Shown: piece by piece, positions 39,655 to 48,432 of the stretch
Layout: every line of letters starts with the position of its first letter
How positions within the stretch are numbered: the first letter of the stretch is position 1
Origin: a virus
Lineage: Duplodnaviria > Heunggongvirae > Uroviricota > Caudoviricetes
IMG/VR virus record: IMGVR_UViG_3300045988_151019
DNA length: 52,849 bases
Direction: 5' to 3' (one strand)
The notes under the pieces: generated by a model
Told to the model about the DNA's origin: nothing
Seen by the model: only the letters and a program-made list of their open reading frames with translations
The model's database searches: none
Translations under genes and position numbers: made by a program

Positions 39655-40689
39655 TTAACCTATTGCTACTGGTTTTAACAAACCAGCATCAAGTAGCTTG
39701 CGAGTTAACCACTGCTGGCCTTTACCCGTTAATTGTGGCGTCAGCCGTATCTGATAGCCATTTTCATCATCCAGCACCACTTCTTTCACCGTGAAATACC
39801 CGGCGTTAATGTACTGCTGGCGCGGTACGTTTTTGCGCGCACCAAAAGCCATGAGAATGCCGTTCTGGCGCAACCATGAGAAAAGGGCGTTTTGCTTAAG
39901 TCCAACGACCTTTGCAAAGTTACCGATCAGGATTCCATTAGCCACTGATACCCGGTCGGCAAAATCGACTTTAGGTGCTGCGGCCACCAGCTGTTGTTCC
40001 AGATGCATTTTCTGTTCTGCCAACTCGGCAGCCAGGCGTAGGGCTTCTGGTAATGTTTGGGGGATCGATGGGGTAGGGGAGTTTGCCTGCTGTAATTCTT
40101 CCAGTTTGTCGATCAGCGAACGGCGGACCGCTTTTGACTCGCGCGCGGCAACTCGCAGGGCTTGTTTGTAGGTCATGGTTATAATATCTATTTCTGCGCC
40201 GTTTTTTTGACCTACGAAAATTTCGTAGGTTTCTCCTTCAAGCTCATCCTTAACTCTGGCAATGAAATCATTGTTGCGAACTGGTTTTTCGCTACATAAT
40301 TTCCGTGCCTCATTGACCATCTTCAACAATGTTTGGCTGTCGATTGTGTCTCCGGTGTTGGGGATGACATTCAGGGCTGGTGCTGGCGTAGCTGAAGCAA
40401 CAGGTGCTGGTTTTTCAACATTTAAATTATTACCGGTCATTCTATGTGCCTCCTTTCTCATTTCTGCTGCCACTGTTGCGTAACGTAGACGTCCTTGTTC
40501 AATCAAATAATCCCTGATCTCGGCTATCAGTAGCCTGTTGATCACAGCCTTATCTGTTCGGGTATAAAAACGCCTGGTTATCATGAAATAGTTGGCAATT
40601 GCGCCGGGGATCTCCCGTGTCGGCATACAGATTGTATGCAAGGCGATCGCTTCGGCTATTTCATTACGGGTGACGAGAGGTGTTTTCAT
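39655..40689 (-). CDS. ant: antirepressor Ant (Ant1 with in-frame Ant2)
   Basis: 344 aa; shares C-terminal module with KilA; ATGA-coupled to icd. Confidence 0.75.
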   Translation of the reverse strand: MKTPLVTRNEIAEAIALHTICMPTREIPGAIANYFMITRRFYTRTDKAVINRLLIAEIRDYLIEQGRLRYATVAAEMRKEAHRMTGNNLNVEKPAPVASATPAPALNVIPNTGDTIDSQTLLKMVNEARKLCSEKPVRNNDFIARVKDELEGETYEIFVGQKNGAEIDIITMTYKQALRVAARESKAVRRSLIDKLEELQQANSPTPSIPQTLPEALRLAAELAEQKMHLEQQLVAAAPKVDFADRVSVANGILIGNFAKVVGLKQNALFSWLRQNGILMAFGARKNVPRQQYINAGYFTVKEVVLDDENGYQIRLTPQLTGKGQQWLTRKLLDAGLLKPVAIG

Positions 40690-40909: not shown

Positions 40910-41200
40910 TTACGGCCTCGTAAGTTGATAAACAACCTGCGACCCGCTGCTAAACAGGTGGCAGGACGTGACGGGGTTAGCAGACTGGCACTTACGAAAC
41001 CAGCAGGCCGAAGCCTCCCCATCACGCCCCACCATAATTCGGGCGTAACGTGGTTTACGGACACAAAAATACCGCAATATCGGAAATCTGCGGTTGTCCG
41101 CGTAAGTATTCAGGCTGCTAAACCCGGTCGCAGAATTTGCTACGACGGCGGAACTATAAGCCTGAACGATTAAAAGGTCAATATGATGCGAAAAGATAGC
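40910..41200 (-). ncRNA. immI leader region expected to hold the c4 antisense RNA and its target repeats (boundaries not resolved)
   Basis: No protein-coding signal; repeated GCTGCTAAAC at 40946 and 41113; sits between operator and icd. Confidence 0.3.
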
Positions 41201-41219: not shown

Positions 41220-41236
41220 AAATTTATTAGAGCATT
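41220..41236 (-). promoter_or_regulatory. C1-type operator motif (plus strand AAATTTATTAGAGCATT)
   Basis: 16/17 consensus match. Confidence 0.55.
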
Positions 41237-41305: not shown

Positions 41306-41980
41306 ATGAGTTATAAGGCAGGTGAGGTTATAATGAGAAAACTATTACTACCGTTATTATTTATGGCTGGGACTGTTAATGCAGCATCAAGCGTAAAGGA
41401 GATTTGTACCGATTATACGAAATACCTTGGGCACGTTTACGGCTTTGCTGTCAGTCAAGACGAATCCATGCGCAAGAAGTTACTGTCAGATATGAAACGC
41501 CTTAAACTTTCTGAAGCGATGGTGCAGCAAGAACTGTATAAAGTCGCAACCAACGAAAATGCTAAATATCAATATTCTCGCCTGTTAAATCCCGACGCAA
41601 ACGAGATCAATCGAAGCTCTTTCGATTATATGGTAAAGGCATGCGAAACCGCTCCTGATTTTGCTATTCCTAGCTGGGGTGTGCTGGTGGCGAGCAATGC
41701 CGTTAATAAAGAAGACGTTGGAAGAAATGGCATTGACTCAATCAGAAATGCCCCTGGAATGCGCCATCAAAACGTGCAGGGTACGCTTGAAGAGCGGGCC
41801 AGGGGGCCGGGTACAAACTCCCCAATGGGAAACCTCTCACCAGAGGAATTGCAAGAGTATAACCAACGGATGGAGCAGTATGAGAAAGCGGCACGCGAAC
41901 AAATGGAACAACAAAAGAACGGCTCACTTAATACCTTTCAGCAAGGTTTAAAAGCGCTTAATTTACCATATGAATGGTAA
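41306..41980 (+). CDS. secreted periplasmic protein, Sim (superinfection immunity)-like candidate; probable start MRKLLL at 41333
   Basis: Signal peptide MRKLLLPLLFMAGTVNA; about 24 kDa; AT-rich codon usage. Confidence 0.45.
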   Translation: MSYKAGEVIMRKLLLPLLFMAGTVNAASSVKEICTDYTKYLGHVYGFAVSQDESMRKKLLSDMKRLKLSEAMVQQELYKVATNENAKYQYSRLLNPDANEINRSSFDYMVKACETAPDFAIPSWGVLVASNAVNKEDVGRNGIDSIRNAPGMRHQNVQGTLEERARGPGTNSPMGNLSPEELQEYNQRMEQYEKAAREQMEQQKNGSLNTFQQGLKALNLPYEW

Positions 41981-42041
41981 ATATATTATGGATAACCAAT
42001 TAAAATATTGATAATCGTTAATCTCCAAAGGAGATAAATTA

Positions 42042-42518
42042 ATGCGCATCAAACGATTTTTTCTAATTCTTGCTTTGCTTACTCCATTTTCATCAATGGC
42101 AAATGTAAGCAAATGGTCAACCGGCGAGACTCATGGTGTTCGTTCTTATGCTGTTTCCAGCAAAGATAATTATACGCTTACATTTGAGTGCGATGTTGGA
42201 TTTAATAATACGGATCCCAATCAAGTAGGAACACGACTACTCACTCTCATGAAAACAGAACCTGGCGGTGAGTCATTTGATGCTAAAAAAGAACAAATAA
42301 CGCTGAAAGTTGGTGATGATGAATATCCTATAAGTTCTATCGGTTCCTCTGTGGGTGATAGTTACTGGTATGGTTTTTGGTCAGATACCCCTGATATGGA
42401 AGTAAAAACATTCGATGCATACGTAGACGGAAAAAAAATCGCAACATTTACGCTACGTAAGGCCGCAGAGCTTTTCAACGCGGCACCTGAAGATGGCTGC
42501 CTGAAGCGCGCAAAATGA
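42042..42518 (+). CDS. AT-rich secreted protein (158 aa), function unknown
   Basis: Signal peptide MRIKRFFLILALLTPFSSMA; visibly lower GC than neighbours. Confidence 0.5.
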   Translation: MRIKRFFLILALLTPFSSMANVSKWSTGETHGVRSYAVSSKDNYTLTFECDVGFNNTDPNQVGTRLLTLMKTEPGGESFDAKKEQITLKVGDDEYPISSIGSSVGDSYWYGFWSDTPDMEVKTFDAYVDGKKIATFTLRKAAELFNAAPEDGCLKRAK

Positions 42519-42524
42519 CCTGTC

Positions 42525-42545
42525 ACAAATGACTACTCGTAGAAT
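42525..42545 (+). promoter_or_regulatory. late-promoter-like motif ACAAATGACT-N5-TAGAAT, followed by 9-bp inverted repeat CGTAGAATC...GATTCTACG
   Basis: Same architecture as the other three sites. Confidence 0.45.
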
Positions 42546-42552
42546 CGGTTAA

Positions 42553-43143
<591 letters not shown>

Positions 43144-43153
43144 GGGGGCTGAT

Positions 43154-43765
43154 ATGGGGCTTAATGTTGCTTCAGTAAAGTCTTATGTATCTTCGGCATT
43201 AACGACGACATTATTTGGCTCCGGCGTTGGTGAGCGGGAAGTTGGCAAGCTGACGTCAATCATCATGAACAAAATGCTGTTCGCGCAAGGATGGCAGTTC
43301 TCTGTCGAAGTTGATGGTCTGGAGGGGGCAGACTTCTTTGCTAAAGACATTACCTACCACGATTACAGCATCGAATATGAAACGATTAAAATCGGCGGAG
43401 GGAATATCCTTCAGCCAACGGAGCGTTCGCCTGGGCAGATAACAATGATGGTCAGGGATACCGTTGATGGCCTCGTTTTGGACTGGTTTAAGACGGCAAA
43501 AAGTCGGGTGATCAATCCGGACGGTACCGGGAATATACCGTCTAAATATTTGCTCAATGTGCGTATTTATCGGTTGCTGTCCTCCGGTTTAACCAAACTG
43601 GAAAATGAGATGACGGTATTCCCGGTCACTACCGGCGATGTCACCTATGCGCGGGATCAGGTTACGGAATTTAAGTCATTCCCAATGACCTTCGCGTTGC
43701 ACAGCACGTTTAACCAATCCTCAAGTTCTTTAGCTTCCCTTCTGGGCTTTAGTTTTTCGCTTTAA
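43154..43765 (+). CDS. putative tail structural protein (203 aa)
   Basis: ORF track. Confidence 0.45.
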   Translation: MGLNVASVKSYVSSALTTTLFGSGVGEREVGKLTSIIMNKMLFAQGWQFSVEVDGLEGADFFAKDITYHDYSIEYETIKIGGGNILQPTERSPGQITMMVRDTVDGLVLDWFKTAKSRVINPDGTGNIPSKYLLNVRIYRLLSSGLTKLENEMTVFPVTTGDVTYARDQVTEFKSFPMTFALHSTFNQSSSSLASLLGFSFSL

Positions 43766-43779
43766 ATTAAGGAGCAAGG

Positions 43780-44661
43780 ATGCTTTTACCCCTTTTCCCG
43801 CTACCATCGCGGCCAACTGAATTAATCCAGTTCCGTCAGCCAAATATTGCTGATGCGATGCGTTTCAACTCGATAACACCGGAGGAACAAGAACAGCAGA
43901 CAACAGCGTATTTAAAAGCCTTGCTGGCTGAAGCTGCGAAACATGATCCACTGAAATGGACGGCACAGGACCGGATTACCGCGTTATGGTGGATATTTAC
44001 TGGCTCCCGCGAAACACCGATCGAGACATTTACCTACACCTGTAAACATTGCGGTAAAGAGCATTATTACGATTGCGATATGAATGCTCTGGCTGAAGAT
44101 ATCCAGGTCCTGGAAGTGGAACCGTTCATTGACGATATTGAGGTGTCTGTAGAGGGCGTGCCTTATCAATGGCGTATCGTGCCGCTTGATGGTTGGGCAA
44201 TGGAAATGCTGGAGATGCGCCGAGCAGCATTGCCACCTGAAGACGACGCGGAATTCAAAGAAGCGATCGTTGATTTGCGTTTTTGGGAATTCGCTTATCA
44301 GTGTGAACTTTATAACGATGTTAGCGGTACTCGTGAAGAGCAGGCTGAGCGTCGTTATGAAACGATCAAACGGATGGCCATTGATACTGAATTTATGAAG
44401 CTGGCGGCACACATCCGGCTGGCTCATGAAAAGCTCGAACATGGTTTACCGTGCTACATCGATAAAGGCGAAATGCGTCTTCGTCTCCCGCCGCACAAAT
44501 GCCCAAACCAGGATACAAAGGAGTCCACAGAGGGTGCGTATACCCGTCTGTGGGTGCCCTTTCGGGCTACCGACTTCATTCCACAGGTGGGGATTGAAAA
44601 GCTATCAGACCTTAGTGTCCAACCTGGTTTTGTATGGGGGTATACCGATTCAGGACGCTGA
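43780..44661 (+). CDS. putative tail assembly protein (293 aa)
   Basis: ORF track; AGGAGCAAGG SD. Confidence 0.45.
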   Translation: MLLPLFPLPSRPTELIQFRQPNIADAMRFNSITPEEQEQQTTAYLKALLAEAAKHDPLKWTAQDRITALWWIFTGSRETPIETFTYTCKHCGKEHYYDCDMNALAEDIQVLEVEPFIDDIEVSVEGVPYQWRIVPLDGWAMEMLEMRRAALPPEDDAEFKEAIVDLRFWEFAYQCELYNDVSGTREEQAERRYETIKRMAIDTEFMKLAAHIRLAHEKLEHGLPCYIDKGEMRLRLPPHKCPNQDTKESTEGAYTRLWVPFRATDFIPQVGIEKLSDLSVQPGFVWGYTDSGR

Positions 44662-44742
44662 AAGGCTTACTGAATCCTATGCGTTTTTCCTGTTGGAGAA
44701 ACTGGAAGAAAAACTTAAACCGAAACGGTAGGCGATAAGATC

Positions 44743-47700
44743 ATGGAAAGAAAAAACGCCAATATTGACGATGTTATAAGGACAGTTGAAACCGCCAGCG
44801 CGAAAGAGCTGGAAGAGCTTGCAGGTATTCGGGAAGCTGTTGAAGATTTGAAAGGGGAACGAGTTGCAACTGTTGATCCTGTCTCTCGCAGTGTGTCGGC
44901 ATTAAATCGCACAATCGAAAATTCACGTCCTGACTTTGTGACCAATGTGCCATCAGTGGACTCTATTGTTGACGCAATGAAACGGCTTAATTTAGGGGAC
45001 GTTTCTCGTATACGGGAGGACAAAGTCACTAACCGTGAACAGCAGGCTGCACCAACAGCGCACAATCCCCCAAATAGACGAAGAGAGGCAATAACAGAGG
45101 ATGTTAAAGCACAGCGGTTAGAAACGGTCAAACTCGCTCGTGATTTGAAAGGGGAACGCGTTGCAACGGTTGACCCAGTATCTCGCAGTGTGTCGGCATT
45201 AAATCGAACAATCGAAAATTCCCGGCCAGACTTTGTGGCCAATGCGCCATCAGTAGACCCTATTGTTGACGCAATGAAACGGCTTAATTTAGGGGACGTT
45301 TCTCGTGTAGTTCAGGAGGGCATTGCTCAACAGGAACAGCAGGCCAAATCAACTACACCAAAGGGTAAAAAAAGACGCAGGAAGGCTATATCAGAGGATA
45401 TAAAGGCACAACGGACCGAAGCAGCCGAACACGCTCGCGAAATGTTCGATCAAAAAGGCGGTGCGCAAAAAAGCCAAAACCAACGCGATGCGCGTGGTCG
45501 TTTTATTGGAAAGTCAGGGAGTAAGGCCGCAGCGGAAGATGCCCGTGCTGAACGTGCTGAAAAGGCCAGGCGCAAAGAGGATGATGAGCGTCTAAATGCT
45601 GAATCAGGTTTATTAAAAAAACTGTCAAAAGTAGCTGAAGGCATAGGTAACCCTTCAGAGACTCGTGCCGTCGATGCGTTAGGTTATGCCGTTGCTGGTC
45701 CATTGTGGGCAGCAGGGAAGGAGCTTGGCGGGATATCAAAAGAAGTTGGTAGATCGCTTAATGGCGCCAGAAAGTCTATTGCCGATGTGATTCGTGGCAA
45801 TGACGATAACAGCCGTAGAAAAGGTTTTTTTAGGCGTAAATCGCAAAATAGTGCCGATGTCGTTCAGGTTAACACCCAAAAACGGACGGTTCAGGAACTT
45901 CAGGAGCAGACCAGCGAAATTAAAGAGGGCAATGACAAGATTCTCAGCGCCCTTGATCAGATAGCCAAAAACACCGGGAAAAAGAAGGGCGGCTTGCTGT
46001 CCAAACTATTTAGCCTGTTAGGGAAGGGGGCCGGTGGCGTCGCGTCGTTGTTAATGGGGCGTGGCATGCTGAAAAAAGCTGGAGCACTCGCTTTTGGCGC
46101 TCTGGGGGCAAAGAAACTTGTAGGAATGCTACGCGGTGGTGGCAAGAAGACTATCGCCCATGAAGGTGGAGATTTGGCTGCCCGGGCAGCAGGTAAATTT
46201 GGATTAAAGGCAGTTGGTAAAGGGGCGTTACGCGCAATTCCCTTAGTCGGCACAGTGGCTGGAGGTATTTATGATGCGGTAACCGGTTGGAATGATACAG
46301 AAGCGCAACGTCGAGCGTTTGGGCTTAAATCAGGACAAGAGCCATCATTCCAGCAAAAAGCCGCTTATACGTTAGCCAATGTTCTTGATATGGGGGGACT
46401 GGTATCTGGTATTAGCAGCGCCATTGGTGAGGTTCTCAAATCACTTGGATTTGAGGATATCGGCAATATGTTGCAATCATTTTCGACGGAAAGTATTGCC
46501 CAGGCCATTGATAGTGGGATTACCAACTTAGAAACATATATTTCTAACCTTGGCGACACCATTTCTACCAAGTTCGAAGATTACACAGCAAAGATTGGTG
46601 ATGCTGTTTCAGCATGGTTTAGCGATACATCTAATAAGCTGCTTGAAAAGCTGGATGCCATCAAAGACTTCTTTACTGTTGATAACCTGAAACAGGTTTT
46701 CAGTGATGCAATTGATAGTGCAATTGATTTCATTAAGAACCCAGGGAAACACATTAAAGAGGCGGCTGGTAATATTTGGGATGGGGTTAAAAATTTACCT
46801 GGTAAAGCATTAGATGCAGCGGTTGATGCCGTTAAAAATACCCCTGCGGCAATGATTGTATCAAAAATACCCAATCCGATCGGCGAGGCTAATGCGAAAG
46901 AAATCACTCCGGAGTTAAAAGCTCCGGTTAATAGCCACCAGGAGACGTCTGATTCTAAAACTGAATCCGATGCCAAACAGAGTAATATTGCTACCCGCGT
47001 GATAAATGCGGCACTGGACACAGCGAAAGATAGCAATAAAACAGTTAAACAAACTGCCAATCAGATTATCAATGCAAATGCCGTAGAAACGGGCAATAGC
47101 GCGTTGCAGAAAATTGATAAAGCTATTGGTCAAAATAGCTCGTCATCATCGTCGCTTAATACCACTGGCACCAGGAATGACATTCAGAAAGCTGCGGATA
47201 CTTACAACAATGGCAACTTAGATGTAAAAGTCGGAAGTCTTGGCGCTGAAGGTAAGGCAAATCTCGATAAGTTGGCTCCGTATTTTGCCGAACTAGAGAA
47301 TAAATACGGTCTTCCAGAAGGCACTCTTTACGCGATTGCTGCAACTGAATCTGGTGGTAATCCGTATGCAAAATCCCAAACCGGTGCTCTGGGGATGTTT
47401 CAGTTCACGGGGATTGCTCGTGAAGAGACTGGCTTAGCTGAAGGTGAATCGTTTGATCCTGTGAAATCGGCAGAAGCTGCGGCTCTTCTCATGAGCAAGT
47501 ATCTTAAGCAAGCCAATGGAGACTTAAACGAGGCCATCACTGCATATAATGCTGGGTTTGGCACTATTAATAAGTGGAAAAAAGGCACCGGTGACTTATC
47601 GAAAGAAAACCGTGAGTACGCGATCAAGGTCAATACTCATCGTGCTCGCTATTTAGGTGGTGAAATCTATACACCTGGAGCAGGAGCACAGGGTGGGGCG

Positions 47701-48432
47701 CAATATGGAGTGAGGGGACCACTGCCTGATAACGCTGTTATCGATCAGTATACTGGCCTGGCGTTTACCCCTGGTGATAGCCCGTTTGAGAAAGGCGGTC
47801 TGGTCGACAAAATCGGCAATGCTGTTGGCGTTAACGATCTGGTCAACAAATTCATGAATGGCCGGGGGATGCGTCGGGAAGTCGTTCAGGGAACGCTAGA
47901 AGAACGTGCACGAGAGAAGGGGACCGCAACAGCAGCTGGCAATGTGTATGTTGATACTCCGATGCCAGTTGAAGAGGCGCGTCCGGTGGCCAACAACTCA
48001 AGTTACTTTGACCATCTCGGCGCACAAATGGGGATTGATGGACTATTCGATAAACTCCGCAACTCGCCGGGGATGCGGAAAAATAATGCGCCTGAACCAG
48101 CCTCCACGTCCCAGGTGACGACTGCCGCCAACGATTTGCAGCAACCAACCGGTCGTATGCAGATAGACGGGCAGGTTATTAGTGACCTTGGCGGTTCCGG
48201 TGCCAAGCCGACAATGCAGTTGGCTGATAATACCGTTTCACTTGATGGTGAAACGAAGCGGCTGTTTGCGCAGATGACCTCATTGCTTGCCAGGATTGAA
48301 GAGCACACCAAAGACTCGGCGAAAGGCCAGGGAACTGTCGTAAAGGTCAGCACGCCTCAGCCGGGCGTTATGCGCACGGTACCACTGTCAATTGATGATC
48401 CGTTGATGAATGACTACGCGAGAGTTGATTGA
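44743..48432 (+). CDS. sit: tape-measure-like injection protein with lytic transglycosylase domain (Sit)
   Basis: 1229 aa; Gly/Ala-rich central segment; SLT motif AIAATESGGNPYAKSQTGALGMFQFT...AYNAG; internal 297-bp tandem duplication. Confidence 0.8.
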   Translation: MERKNANIDDVIRTVETASAKELEELAGIREAVEDLKGERVATVDPVSRSVSALNRTIENSRPDFVTNVPSVDSIVDAMKRLNLGDVSRIREDKVTNREQQAAPTAHNPPNRRREAITEDVKAQRLETVKLARDLKGERVATVDPVSRSVSALNRTIENSRPDFVANAPSVDPIVDAMKRLNLGDVSRVVQEGIAQQEQQAKSTTPKGKKRRRKAISEDIKAQRTEAAEHAREMFDQKGGAQKSQNQRDARGRFIGKSGSKAAAEDARAERAEKARRKEDDERLNAESGLLKKLSKVAEGIGNPSETRAVDALGYAVAGPLWAAGKELGGISKEVGRSLNGARKSIADVIRGNDDNSRRKGFFRRKSQNSADVVQVNTQKRTVQELQEQTSEIKEGNDKILSALDQIAKNTGKKKGGLLSKLFSLLGKGAGGVASLLMGRGMLKKAGALAFGALGAKKLVGMLRGGGKKTIAHEGGDLAARAAGKFGLKAVGKGALRAIPLVGTVAGGIYDAVTGWNDTEAQRRAFGLKSGQEPSFQQKAAYTLANVLDMGGLVSGISSAIGEVLKSLGFEDIGNMLQSFSTESIAQAIDSGITNLETYISNLGDTISTKFEDYTAKIGDAVSAWFSDTSNKLLEKLDAIKDFFTVDNLKQVFSDAIDSAIDFIKNPGKHIKEAAGNIWDGVKNLPGKALDAAVDAVKNTPAAMIVSKIPNPIGEANAKEITPELKAPVNSHQETSDSKTESDAKQSNIATRVINAALDTAKDSNKTVKQTANQIINANAVETGNSALQKIDKAIGQNSSSSSSLNTTGTRNDIQKAADTYNNGNLDVKVGSLGAEGKANLDKLAPYFAELENKYGLPEGTLYAIAATESGGNPYAKSQTGALGMFQFTGIAREETGLAEGESFDPVKSAEAAALLMSKYLKQANGDLNEAITAYNAGFGTINKWKKGTGDLSKENREYAIKVNTHRARYLGGEIYTPGAGAQGGAQYGVRGPLPDNAVIDQYTGLAFTPGDSPFEKGGLVDKIGNAVGVNDLVNKFMNGRGMRREVVQGTLEERAREKGTATAAGNVYVDTPMPVEEARPVANNSSYFDHLGAQMGIDGLFDKLRNSPGMRKNNAPEPASTSQVTTAANDLQQPTGRMQIDGQVISDLGGSGAKPTMQLADNTVSLDGETKRLFAQMTSLLARIEEHTKDSAKGQGTVVKVSTPQPGVMRTVPLSIDDPLMNDYARVD
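44845..45438 (+). repeat. tandem direct duplication (2 x 297 bp) inside sit
   Basis: Units 44845-45141 and 45142-45438 encode DLKGERVATVDPVSRSVSALNRTIENSRPDFV...MKRLNLGDVSR twice. Confidence 0.8.

Follow-up and report, generated by a model that had tools for sequence, protein, structure and literature searches.

Phages can block the genome delivery of other phages by proteins that act in the cell envelope. Spackle of phage T4, a small all-helical protein that is secreted into the periplasm, inhibits the gp5 tail lysozyme, and for two further exclusion proteins, gp15 of HK97 and Ltp of TP-J34, escape mutants map to the tape-measure protein. Related to this is receptor interference, as known from g3p of the Ff phages, which occupies TolA, and from retroviral Env. 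For phage P1, Maillou and Dreiseikelmann reportedly found in 1990 that the Sim protein is exported and processed. PMC8546580, with reference to Devlin 1982 and Kliem & Dreiseikelmann 1989, gives as the proposed action of Sim a block of DNA entry at a step that follows adsorption and precedes arrival of the DNA in the cytoplasm. The sim genes are non-essential and sit is the essential tape-measure gene of P1 (PMC10695390). Imm of T4 binds the T4 tape-measure protein and is a precedent for exclusion at this protein (bioRxiv 10.64898/2026.03.06.709160), and Ltp is the exclusion protein of TP-J34 (PMC3952083). Here we analyze a stretch of viral DNA of 52,849 nucleotides (Caudoviricetes; IMG/VR record IMGVR_UViG_3300045988_151019), in the following called the window, which carries at the sim locus of a P1-like phage-plasmid an open reading frame (ORF) for a predicted secreted protein of the SimA family. 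This protein, termed ORF-A, shares a segment of about 37 residues with the Sit protein encoded in the same window.

A comparison with the described systems reveals likeness in each case and difference in most. P1 SimA ("putative superimmunity accessory function") is homologous to ORF-A and has the same position and orientation beside the operator Oc4, but the P1 form lacks the tail as well as the helical domain and the motif shared with Sit, and simB-simC are found in their place. P1 Sim (SimC) is encoded at the same locus as ORF-A without any sequence similarity to it (phrog_14355 versus phrog_3933) and, unlike ORF-A, has no similarity to Sit. T4 Imm is likewise phage-encoded and acts at the tape-measure step of genome delivery, which is shown for T4 and proposed here for ORF-A; however, Imm is an integral membrane protein that binds the helical-bundle domain of gp29 and carries no copy of the tape-measure protein, whereas ORF-A is predicted to be a soluble periplasmic protein with a tape-measure-derived peptide. 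Spackle is secreted and all-helical, as is predicted for ORF-A, and is aimed at a cell-wall-cutting component of the tail tip, which is a proposal in the case of ORF-A. HK97 gp15 and Ltp are encoded by prophages, reside in the envelope and, as ORF-A may do, block DNA entry at the level of the tape-measure protein, but gp15 is a membrane protein, Ltp is a lipoprotein and neither copies a segment of its tape-measure target. Receptor interference follows the same logic, in that a resident element expresses the partner-binding part of an entry protein in the compartment of the partner, but it uses a whole entry protein or domain with a known partner, whereas ORF-A is a separate carrier with a peptide of only ~37 residues. 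The finding is best classed with the prophage-encoded envelope proteins that block genome delivery.

A segment shared by ORF-A and Sit

The comparison of the two proteins refers to the following features of the window (aa, amino acids; E, expect value):

41333..41980, plus strand: ORF-A, full-length SimA-family protein of 215 aa, predicted to be secreted (phrog_3933, E 6e-137; GGTGAGG Shine-Dalgarno sequence)
41732..41842, plus strand: Sit-like motif in ORF-A, aa 134-170, IDSIRNAPGMRHQNVQGTLEERARGPGTNSPMGNLSP (hhalign, BLASTP)
44743..48432, plus strand: sit, tape-measure/injection transglycosylase of 1229 aa (phrog_2533; 96-97% identical to P1 and P7 Sit)
47281..47610, plus strand: SLT lytic transglycosylase domain, Sit aa 847-956 (PF01464, E 3e-27)
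47842..47952, plus strand: Sit motif copy 1, aa 1034-1070, VNKFMNGRGMRREVVQGTLEERAREKGTATAAGNVYV, ~75 residues after the SLT domain
48034..48090, plus strand: Sit half-copy 2, aa 1098-1116, IDGLFDKLRNSPGMRKNNA (BLASTP E 0.019-0.04 versus ORF-A)

An original prediction, made by a model from the sequence, had proposed that ORF-A copies a segment of Sit, and had quoted three short peptides in support. All of them are present, GIDSIRNAPGMRHQNVQGTLEERARGPGT in ORF-A and NGRGMRREVVQGTLEERAREKGT and GIDGLFDKLRNSPGMR in Sit (44743-48432), and both the pairwise alignment and the profile search that had been suggested as a check bear out the claim. The shared segment comprises ~37-42 residues in the region of Sit that follows the SLT domain, with a half-copy 60 residues further on. 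BLASTP aligned ORF-A 131-177 (numbering of a 224-aa form, see below) to Sit 1026-1068 with 22 of 47 identities (47%, E 1e-7), and the half-copy FDKLRNSPGMR (Sit 1102-1116) matched ORF-A with E 0.019. The Smith-Waterman score of 93 compares with 40.5 +/- 5.7 (maximum 69) for 1000 shuffles of ORF-A (z = 9.2), none of which reached 93, and in the six-frame translation of the window Sit is the sole other match of the motif (93; next best 41). Profile searches recovered the relationship from both sides, as ORF-A 138-180 (224-aa numbering) matches the Sit family phrog_2533 with E 8.6e-8 and Sit 1028-1069 matches phrog_3933 with E 1e-3. Furthermore, hhalign of 15 SimA-like versus 10 Sit sequences yielded a probability of 96.8% and an E of 2.3e-10 over 42 columns, and M, R, G, R and A are invariant in the joint alignment of both families. 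A low-complexity coincidence, which had been named as an outcome that would speak against the prediction, is ruled out because composition-adjusted statistics were used. These 42 columns are all that ORF-A has in common with Sit; an SLT domain or a tape-measure architecture was not found in ORF-A, and a comparison of the other proteins of the sim cassettes (SimB, SimC, Upf50.0 and Upf50.5 of P7 and the YfjT-like proteins) with Sit revealed no copy.

In Sit, 13 residues of copy 1 (K1036, F1037, G1042, M1043, R1044, V1048, Q1049, G1050, T1051, L1052, R1055, A1056 and G1060) are invariant in 10 proteins with 50-97% identity. The mean column conservation is 0.80 for the motif, 0.73 for the SLT domain and 0.65 for the whole protein, and where a divergent SLT module has taken the place of the usual one in Sit, the motif is still there. 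A ~44-aa insertion (window 47953-48090, Sit 1071-1116), in which the N-terminal half of the motif occurs again (GIDGLFDKLRNSPGMR), is specific to Sit of the P1 group and is absent from the Salmonella and Klebsiella Sit proteins. Sit could not be resolved in the cryo-electron microscopy structure of P1 (PMC12810830). In an AlphaFold2 model of Sit 830-1229 as monomer, the SLT domain alone folds confidently and everything after it has a predicted local distance difference test (pLDDT) value below 50.

Some further observations concern the variability of Sit. The insertion exists as two alleles, LFDKLRNSPGMRKNNAPEP and LYDKLINARGMRSNNSPQP, and alleles of ORF-A vary between NAPGMR and NSPGMR at the matching position. 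Four homologues (P0045, P0047, P0057 and P0058) contain a divergent lysozyme-like SLT variant flanked by conserved tape-measure and motif regions; as the SLT module is exchanged while its flanks are conserved, Sit can be regarded as a mosaic protein. Near the N-terminus a 297-bp tandem duplication in sit (44845-45414; 1.9 copies, 81% match) results in a 99-residue repeat. With 1229 aa the protein is longer here than in P1 (1140 aa) and P7 (1130 aa), and a long allele of 1225-1263 aa occurs in 9 of ~56 related loci. The longer tape measure might lead to a longer tail.

Conservation and distribution of the motif

The motif of ORF-A is conserved in its own family. Across 12-15 members, some of which are only 32-42% identical, N139 and R144 are invariant and conservation reaches at least 90% at G142, M143 and Q146, and the N..GMR.Q core is kept in every full-length member of the SimA family. 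In both families the segment is conserved across lineages of Escherichia, Salmonella and Klebsiella, and it persists where the SimA-like proteins are only 32-66% identical. At the level of DNA, ORF-A and Sit are 56% identical over the 37 aligned codons with saturated synonymous sites, and the identical residues, leaving out Met with its single codon, use the same codon in only 4 of 18 cases. The low nucleotide identity together with the different codons therefore points to an old relationship held by selection on the amino-acid sequence and not to a recent transfer. For the same reasons, namely nucleotide identity and saturated synonymous sites, a recent transfer of DNA or a gene conversion between sit and ORF-A was rejected; moreover, the two genes are not adjacent in one lineage. 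When 1.84 billion representative proteins were searched exhaustively by HMMER with the joint motif profile, nine matches resulted, all of which are Sit-like proteins, SimA-like proteins or fragments of them, and on the basis of this search the motif is private to the two families.

The SimA family is modular. A subset contains the whole motif, followed in some members by a coiled-coil tail ending with LNLPYEW (the window and a Salmonella plasmid) and in others by a Cys-loop module, so that relatives carry other modules in place of the C-terminal tail of ORF-A. A frequent 163-aa SimA-like allele stops three residues after the motif, and the break-points of recombination apparently spare the motif. 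When the alternative Cys-loop tails were compared with the virion proteins of their own loci no copy was found; these tails match only each other. Among the plasmids in PLSDB, ~477 encode a P1-type Sit C-terminus and 267 have some SimA sequence; 84 records cover at least 80% of ORF-A, the number of long, highly identical forms is ~115 as estimated from identity bands, and the rest are stumps of the P1 type. By the same kind of estimate, roughly a quarter of the P1-like plasmids in PLSDB appear to have a motif-bearing form.

ORF-A as full-length form of SimA

ORF-A had been placed at 41306-41980 in the original prediction. The reading frame itself holds, but its start probably does not, as the likely ATG is located at 41333, where a GGTGAGG Shine-Dalgarno sequence is found upstream and the phrog_3933 profile begins. 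The alternative ATG at 41306 gives a protein of 224 aa, of which residues 10-224 match the profile over its positions 1-213 of 213 with E 6.3e-137. Similarly, the label "Sim-like" is justified by the position of the gene but not by homology to P1 SimC, which was rejected, as the best BLASTP match has E 29 and ORF-A falls into phrog_3933 and not into phrog_14355. By contrast with SimC, P1 SimA is a clear relative: the first 41-48 aa of ORF-A are 85-93% identical to it (93% for P1 SimA residues 10-50 versus ORF-A 1-41). The P1 simA gene (L001 1807-1965; P1_gp043, 52 aa) corresponds to the signal peptide plus ~25 residues of the 215-aa gene, and in P1 simB-simC took the place of the remaining simA and of the YfjT-like gene. 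By these comparisons ORF-A is SimA at its full length, and P1 has retained a stump of ~41-48 residues. Homologues of the family, 28-35 in number (~35 cluster representatives), were found in Escherichia, Salmonella, Klebsiella and metagenomes, several of them labelled "simA domain protein" in their source, and a partial copy (residues 1-146) is present in a Cronobacter phage.

Beside the motif, ORF-A consists of three parts:

41333..41383, plus strand: Sec signal peptide by prediction, MRKLLLPLLFMAGTVNA, with the cleavage site ahead of ASS (n/h/c regions, V-N-A at -3..-1)
41390..41707, plus strand: N-terminal domain, aa 20-125, folded and entirely helical; C25 and C104 are conserved
41840..41956, plus strand: C-terminal helix, aa 170-208, protein end ...LKALNLPYEW (AlphaFold2, pLDDT ~60-72)

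Secretion of ORF-A, as claimed at the outset, is supported by the prediction of this canonical Sec signal (MRKLLLPLLFMAGTVNA, cleaved before AS) at a site conserved in the family: ANA-(A/S)S is found across the SimA family with N16, A17 and S19 invariant, and a lipobox is absent. The pLDDT is low over residues 1-19, and the helical domain 20-125, in which C25 and C104 are invariant in the members of the family, reaches 88-96 (AlphaFold2 with the family alignment). The region ~130-170, which holds the motif, has a pLDDT below 50 and is therefore read as a flexible linker. In both proteins the motif region adjoins a folded domain, and AlphaFold2 cannot fold the motif alone in either of them; such an unfolded motif beside a folded domain would fit a linear binding peptide.

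Searches by structure and by sequence revealed no informative relative of the helical domain, and NCBIfam and PADLOC contained no family or defence match for ORF-A, SimB, SimC or ORF-B, the neighbouring gene described below. A PTP-like phytase (PF14566) was considered for the N-terminal domain and rejected, as the match of 26.5 bits lies under the cut-off of 27 and covers profile positions 47-132 only, and the sole candidate for the C-x5-R loop, C104-ETAPD-F, has no Arg at +6. Matches of the family and motif profiles in the PDB (a monofunctional glycosyltransferase with 16 bits and the RGD loop of a disintegrin) were judged to be chance. The C-terminal end of ORF-A, L(K/N)xLNLP(Y/F) (window 41933-41977), recurs in a Salmonella relative with 59% identity (L004 10001-10669) and in a metagenomic relative with 32% identity and a different middle part (L084 10001-10651), it is also seen in the distant homologue P0159, and this LNLP(Y/F) end may be a second conserved peptide.

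The sim locus and its neighbourhood

The window represents a P1-like phage-plasmid with 92-98% identity to P1-like phages (Punavirus) and is best matched as a whole by vB_EcoM-Ro157c2YLVW (98% coverage). P1 and P7 cover only 81-84% of it because the stretch from c4 to pmgC differs. The order of genes is ant1 (minus strand), icd (minus strand), C4 RNA with its a1b1 targets beside it, Oc4, ORF-A, ORF-B, pmgC, tub, pmgB, sit, pmgA and bplA, and the surroundings of ORF-A include:

39655-40689, minus strand: ant1
40954..41039, minus strand: antisense RNA C4, immunity region I (match to Rfam RF01695 with 70.8 bits and E 3e-13)
41220..41236, minus strand: C1 operator Oc4 in the divergent intergenic region (16/17 match to ATTGCTCTAATAAATTT)
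42042..42518, plus strand: ORF-B, 158-aa YfjT-family protein, predicted to be secreted (phrog_3429, E 1e-80)
42577-43143: pmgC

ORF-A is located between Oc4/c4 RNA and pmgC, which is the position of the sim locus, and the P1 annotation puts Oc4 and a predicted PsimA promoter at the position equivalent to Oc4 of the window. In P7 the site is occupied by two other secreted proteins, Upf50.0 and Upf50.5. Because the window, P1 and P7 carry different secreted genes there, the sim site seems to be a cassette locus into which genes for secreted proteins are swapped. Eight regions of the P1-like phage-plasmids are described as highly variable, and simABC is one of them (PMC9603915).

ORF-B is 34% identical (E 4e-32) to a gene of the Salmonella relative L004 that carries PF27224:YfjT, and has two conserved Cys. 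The name YfjT comes from a gene of an E. coli cryptic prophage. In all seven lineages examined, beside the sit operon, a YfjT-family gene is found 3' of the SimA-like gene, either directly or after one short ORF, which suggests that both genes form a two-gene module. One relative from IMG/VR (L035 8731-12258) contains the 163-aa SimA-like allele with a 402-aa TnpB-like ORF directly upstream; on its other side lie a YfjT-like gene of another kind (168 aa) and an ORF of 394 aa.

A possible decoy for the tape-measure protein

Our preferred, still tentative reading, to which we assign a probability of roughly 40%, is that ORF-A acts as a periplasmic decoy for a docking peptide of Sit and thereby blocks superinfecting P1-like phages. 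Sit is the tape-measure protein and is expelled upon tail contraction (PMC12810830); it would pass from the tail to the periplasm when infection begins, with the motif just behind the domain that cuts peptidoglycan. As Sit is expelled into this compartment, the motif is most likely a docking peptide that is used there, and the docking partner could be a component of the host envelope or of the phage tail tip. ORF-A, encoded by a P1-like prophage in its variable sim cassette, would be exported by Sec as a soluble protein, with the periplasm as its probable location, and would display the ~37-residue Sit-homologous peptide on the flexible linker behind the helical domain. Resident ORF-A would then occupy the partner of Sit, and genome delivery of superinfecting P1-like phages would stop after adsorption. 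While the homology of the motif, its conservation in the two families and its restriction to them are observed, we infer the periplasmic location, the docking function of the motif and the exclusion phenotype. The location of the gene at the known exclusion locus of P1 argues for the decoy, as do the significance of the shared segment, the amino-acid selection on it, its confinement to Sit-like and SimA-like proteins, its conservation in Sit above that of the SLT domain, its survival at recombination break-points, its position in parts that AlphaFold2 leaves unfolded, the joint change from GTL to GSM described below and the precedent of T4 Imm.

Several observations weigh against it. Exclusion in P1 maps to SimC, which is unrelated to the SimA family, and no partner of the motif, be it from host or phage, can be named. 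A scan for promoter consensus sequences detected no site upstream of the ORF-A start, and for P1 the annotated promoter is a predicted one. In Sit, the last 90 residues are more conserved (0.88) than the motif, which ranks merely in the top quarter of conserved windows. In many members of the Klebsiella/Salmonella type the motif is reduced to its initial 8-13 residues, and VQGTLEERARG... is replaced by one or two Cys-loop modules; therefore, the full copy is not essential to the SimA family. A copy that tracks the Sit of its own phage should resemble it more closely than it resembles the Sit of other lineages, but a permutation test with 12 lineage pairs gave a p of 0.03 over 36 columns and of 0.2 over the core alone, which is a weak signal. 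Moreover, ORF-A of the window is only 47% identical to its own Sit (E 4e-7), compared with 58-59% for Sit of Klebsiella and Salmonella (E 3e-13 and 7e-11).

Co-variation of the two motifs is seen to some extent in other comparisons. In the six lineages with the full motif, cognate pairs score 104 compared with a permutation mean of 96 (p = 0.033). In one distant lineage both motifs have GSM where all others have GTL (Sit P0152 in L082; SimA-like P0157 in L083), and since L082 and L083 overlap by 5,628 bp at 100% identity both proteins can be assigned to the same phage. Its SimA-like gene is not adjacent to sit, as genes including a Rep gene lie between them. In the metagenomic P1-like elements L083 and L084 the SimA-like gene is found between a block on the replication/anti-repressor side and rdgC-dmt-ban-like genes; due to this location away from the sit operon, the link to sit is independent of adjacency. 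Overall, the cognate co-variation of the motif pairs is weak and may be taken as suggestive only.

The alternative that survives best is a captured module with no role in exclusion. According to this explanation a piece of sit was taken long ago by the neighbouring accessory gene, or vice versa, and would serve a generic periplasmic task such as contact to peptidoglycan or a handle for a chaperone or protease, with ORF-A and the YfjT-like protein acting as a factor of lysogenic conversion or envelope fitness. That many relatives can dispense with half of the motif lends it weight, and the constant secreted partner gene of the YfjT family, the missing defence-family match of ORF-A and the fact that P1 and P7 manage without the full protein are in line with it. 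However, the motif occurs in no other protein among the 1.84 billion representatives, which argues against a generic envelope module, the gene lies at the sole P1 locus known for exclusion, and the change from GTL to GSM affects both partners of the distant lineage. Both the capture and a task outside exclusion are therefore possible, but in our view rather unlikely.

Less likely again is a direct contact, in which the shared segment is an element of the oligomeric tape-measure protein for self-association or for contact in the tail lumen and ORF-A acts as a poison subunit that binds the incoming Sit or the tip of the opened tube, its helical domain sterically blocking SLT action or the formation of a channel. 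ORF-A would then attack the injected machinery, in the manner of T4 Imm or Spackle, and would not compete for a target in the host. The direct binding of the tape-measure protein by T4 Imm (bioRxiv 10.64898/2026.03.06.709160) is a model for such a contact, which would also be consistent with the distance of ~75 residues between SLT domain and motif; the second half-copy in Sit of the P1 group fits a contact between repeats, and the weak cognate co-variation is what a direct contact would produce. On the other hand, in the low-confidence AlphaFold2 monomer the motif packs neither against the SLT domain nor against itself, and foreign Sit proteins are nearer to ORF-A of the window than its own, so that we consider both the binding and the steric block improbable. 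Finally, a chance or low-complexity resemblance, for which the shortness of the common stretch (~40 residues) could be brought forward, is practically refuted by the z of 9.2, the hhalign E of 2.3e-10, the reciprocal PHROG matches and the same invariant columns in both families.

Returning to the decoy, one may ask how far it can be generalized. That the SimA-family proteins as a whole are a class of periplasmic decoys, in which an orphan helical carrier presents a linear peptide derived from the tape-measure protein and excludes P1-like phages by occupying the periplasmic docking site of Sit, appears doubtful at present. Were it so, superinfection exclusion through molecular mimicry of a tape-measure motif would be seen for the first time, genome delivery of P1 would include a previously unknown periplasmic step that depends on the motif, and the divergence and duplication of the motif in Sit of the P1 group (NAPGMRHQ to NGRGMRRE and the extra NSPGMR half-copy) could be a trace of escape.

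Implications

In the literature searched, outside of which the P1 genome paper (Lobocka 2004) lies, we found no mention of a similarity between SimA and Sit or of the motif. The motif-bearing protein is absent from the well-studied P1 and P7, which would explain why it went unnoticed. For the largely unexplained passage of phage genomes across the periplasm and the inner membrane, in P1 and in contractile-tailed phages generally, a peptide that a dispensable secreted protein has in common with Sit offers ~37 residues for mutation, for synthesis and for use as bait. If the decoy is real, peptide mimicry of a tape-measure protein would join superinfection exclusion as a new mechanism. The decoy would furthermore explain the ancestral simA gene as it was before the replacement by simB-simC in P1, and why the sim locus ranks among the most variable cassettes of P1-like phage-plasmids. 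In natural Enterobacteriaceae, plasmids with the motif-bearing form could limit transduction by P1 or the spread of phage-plasmids.

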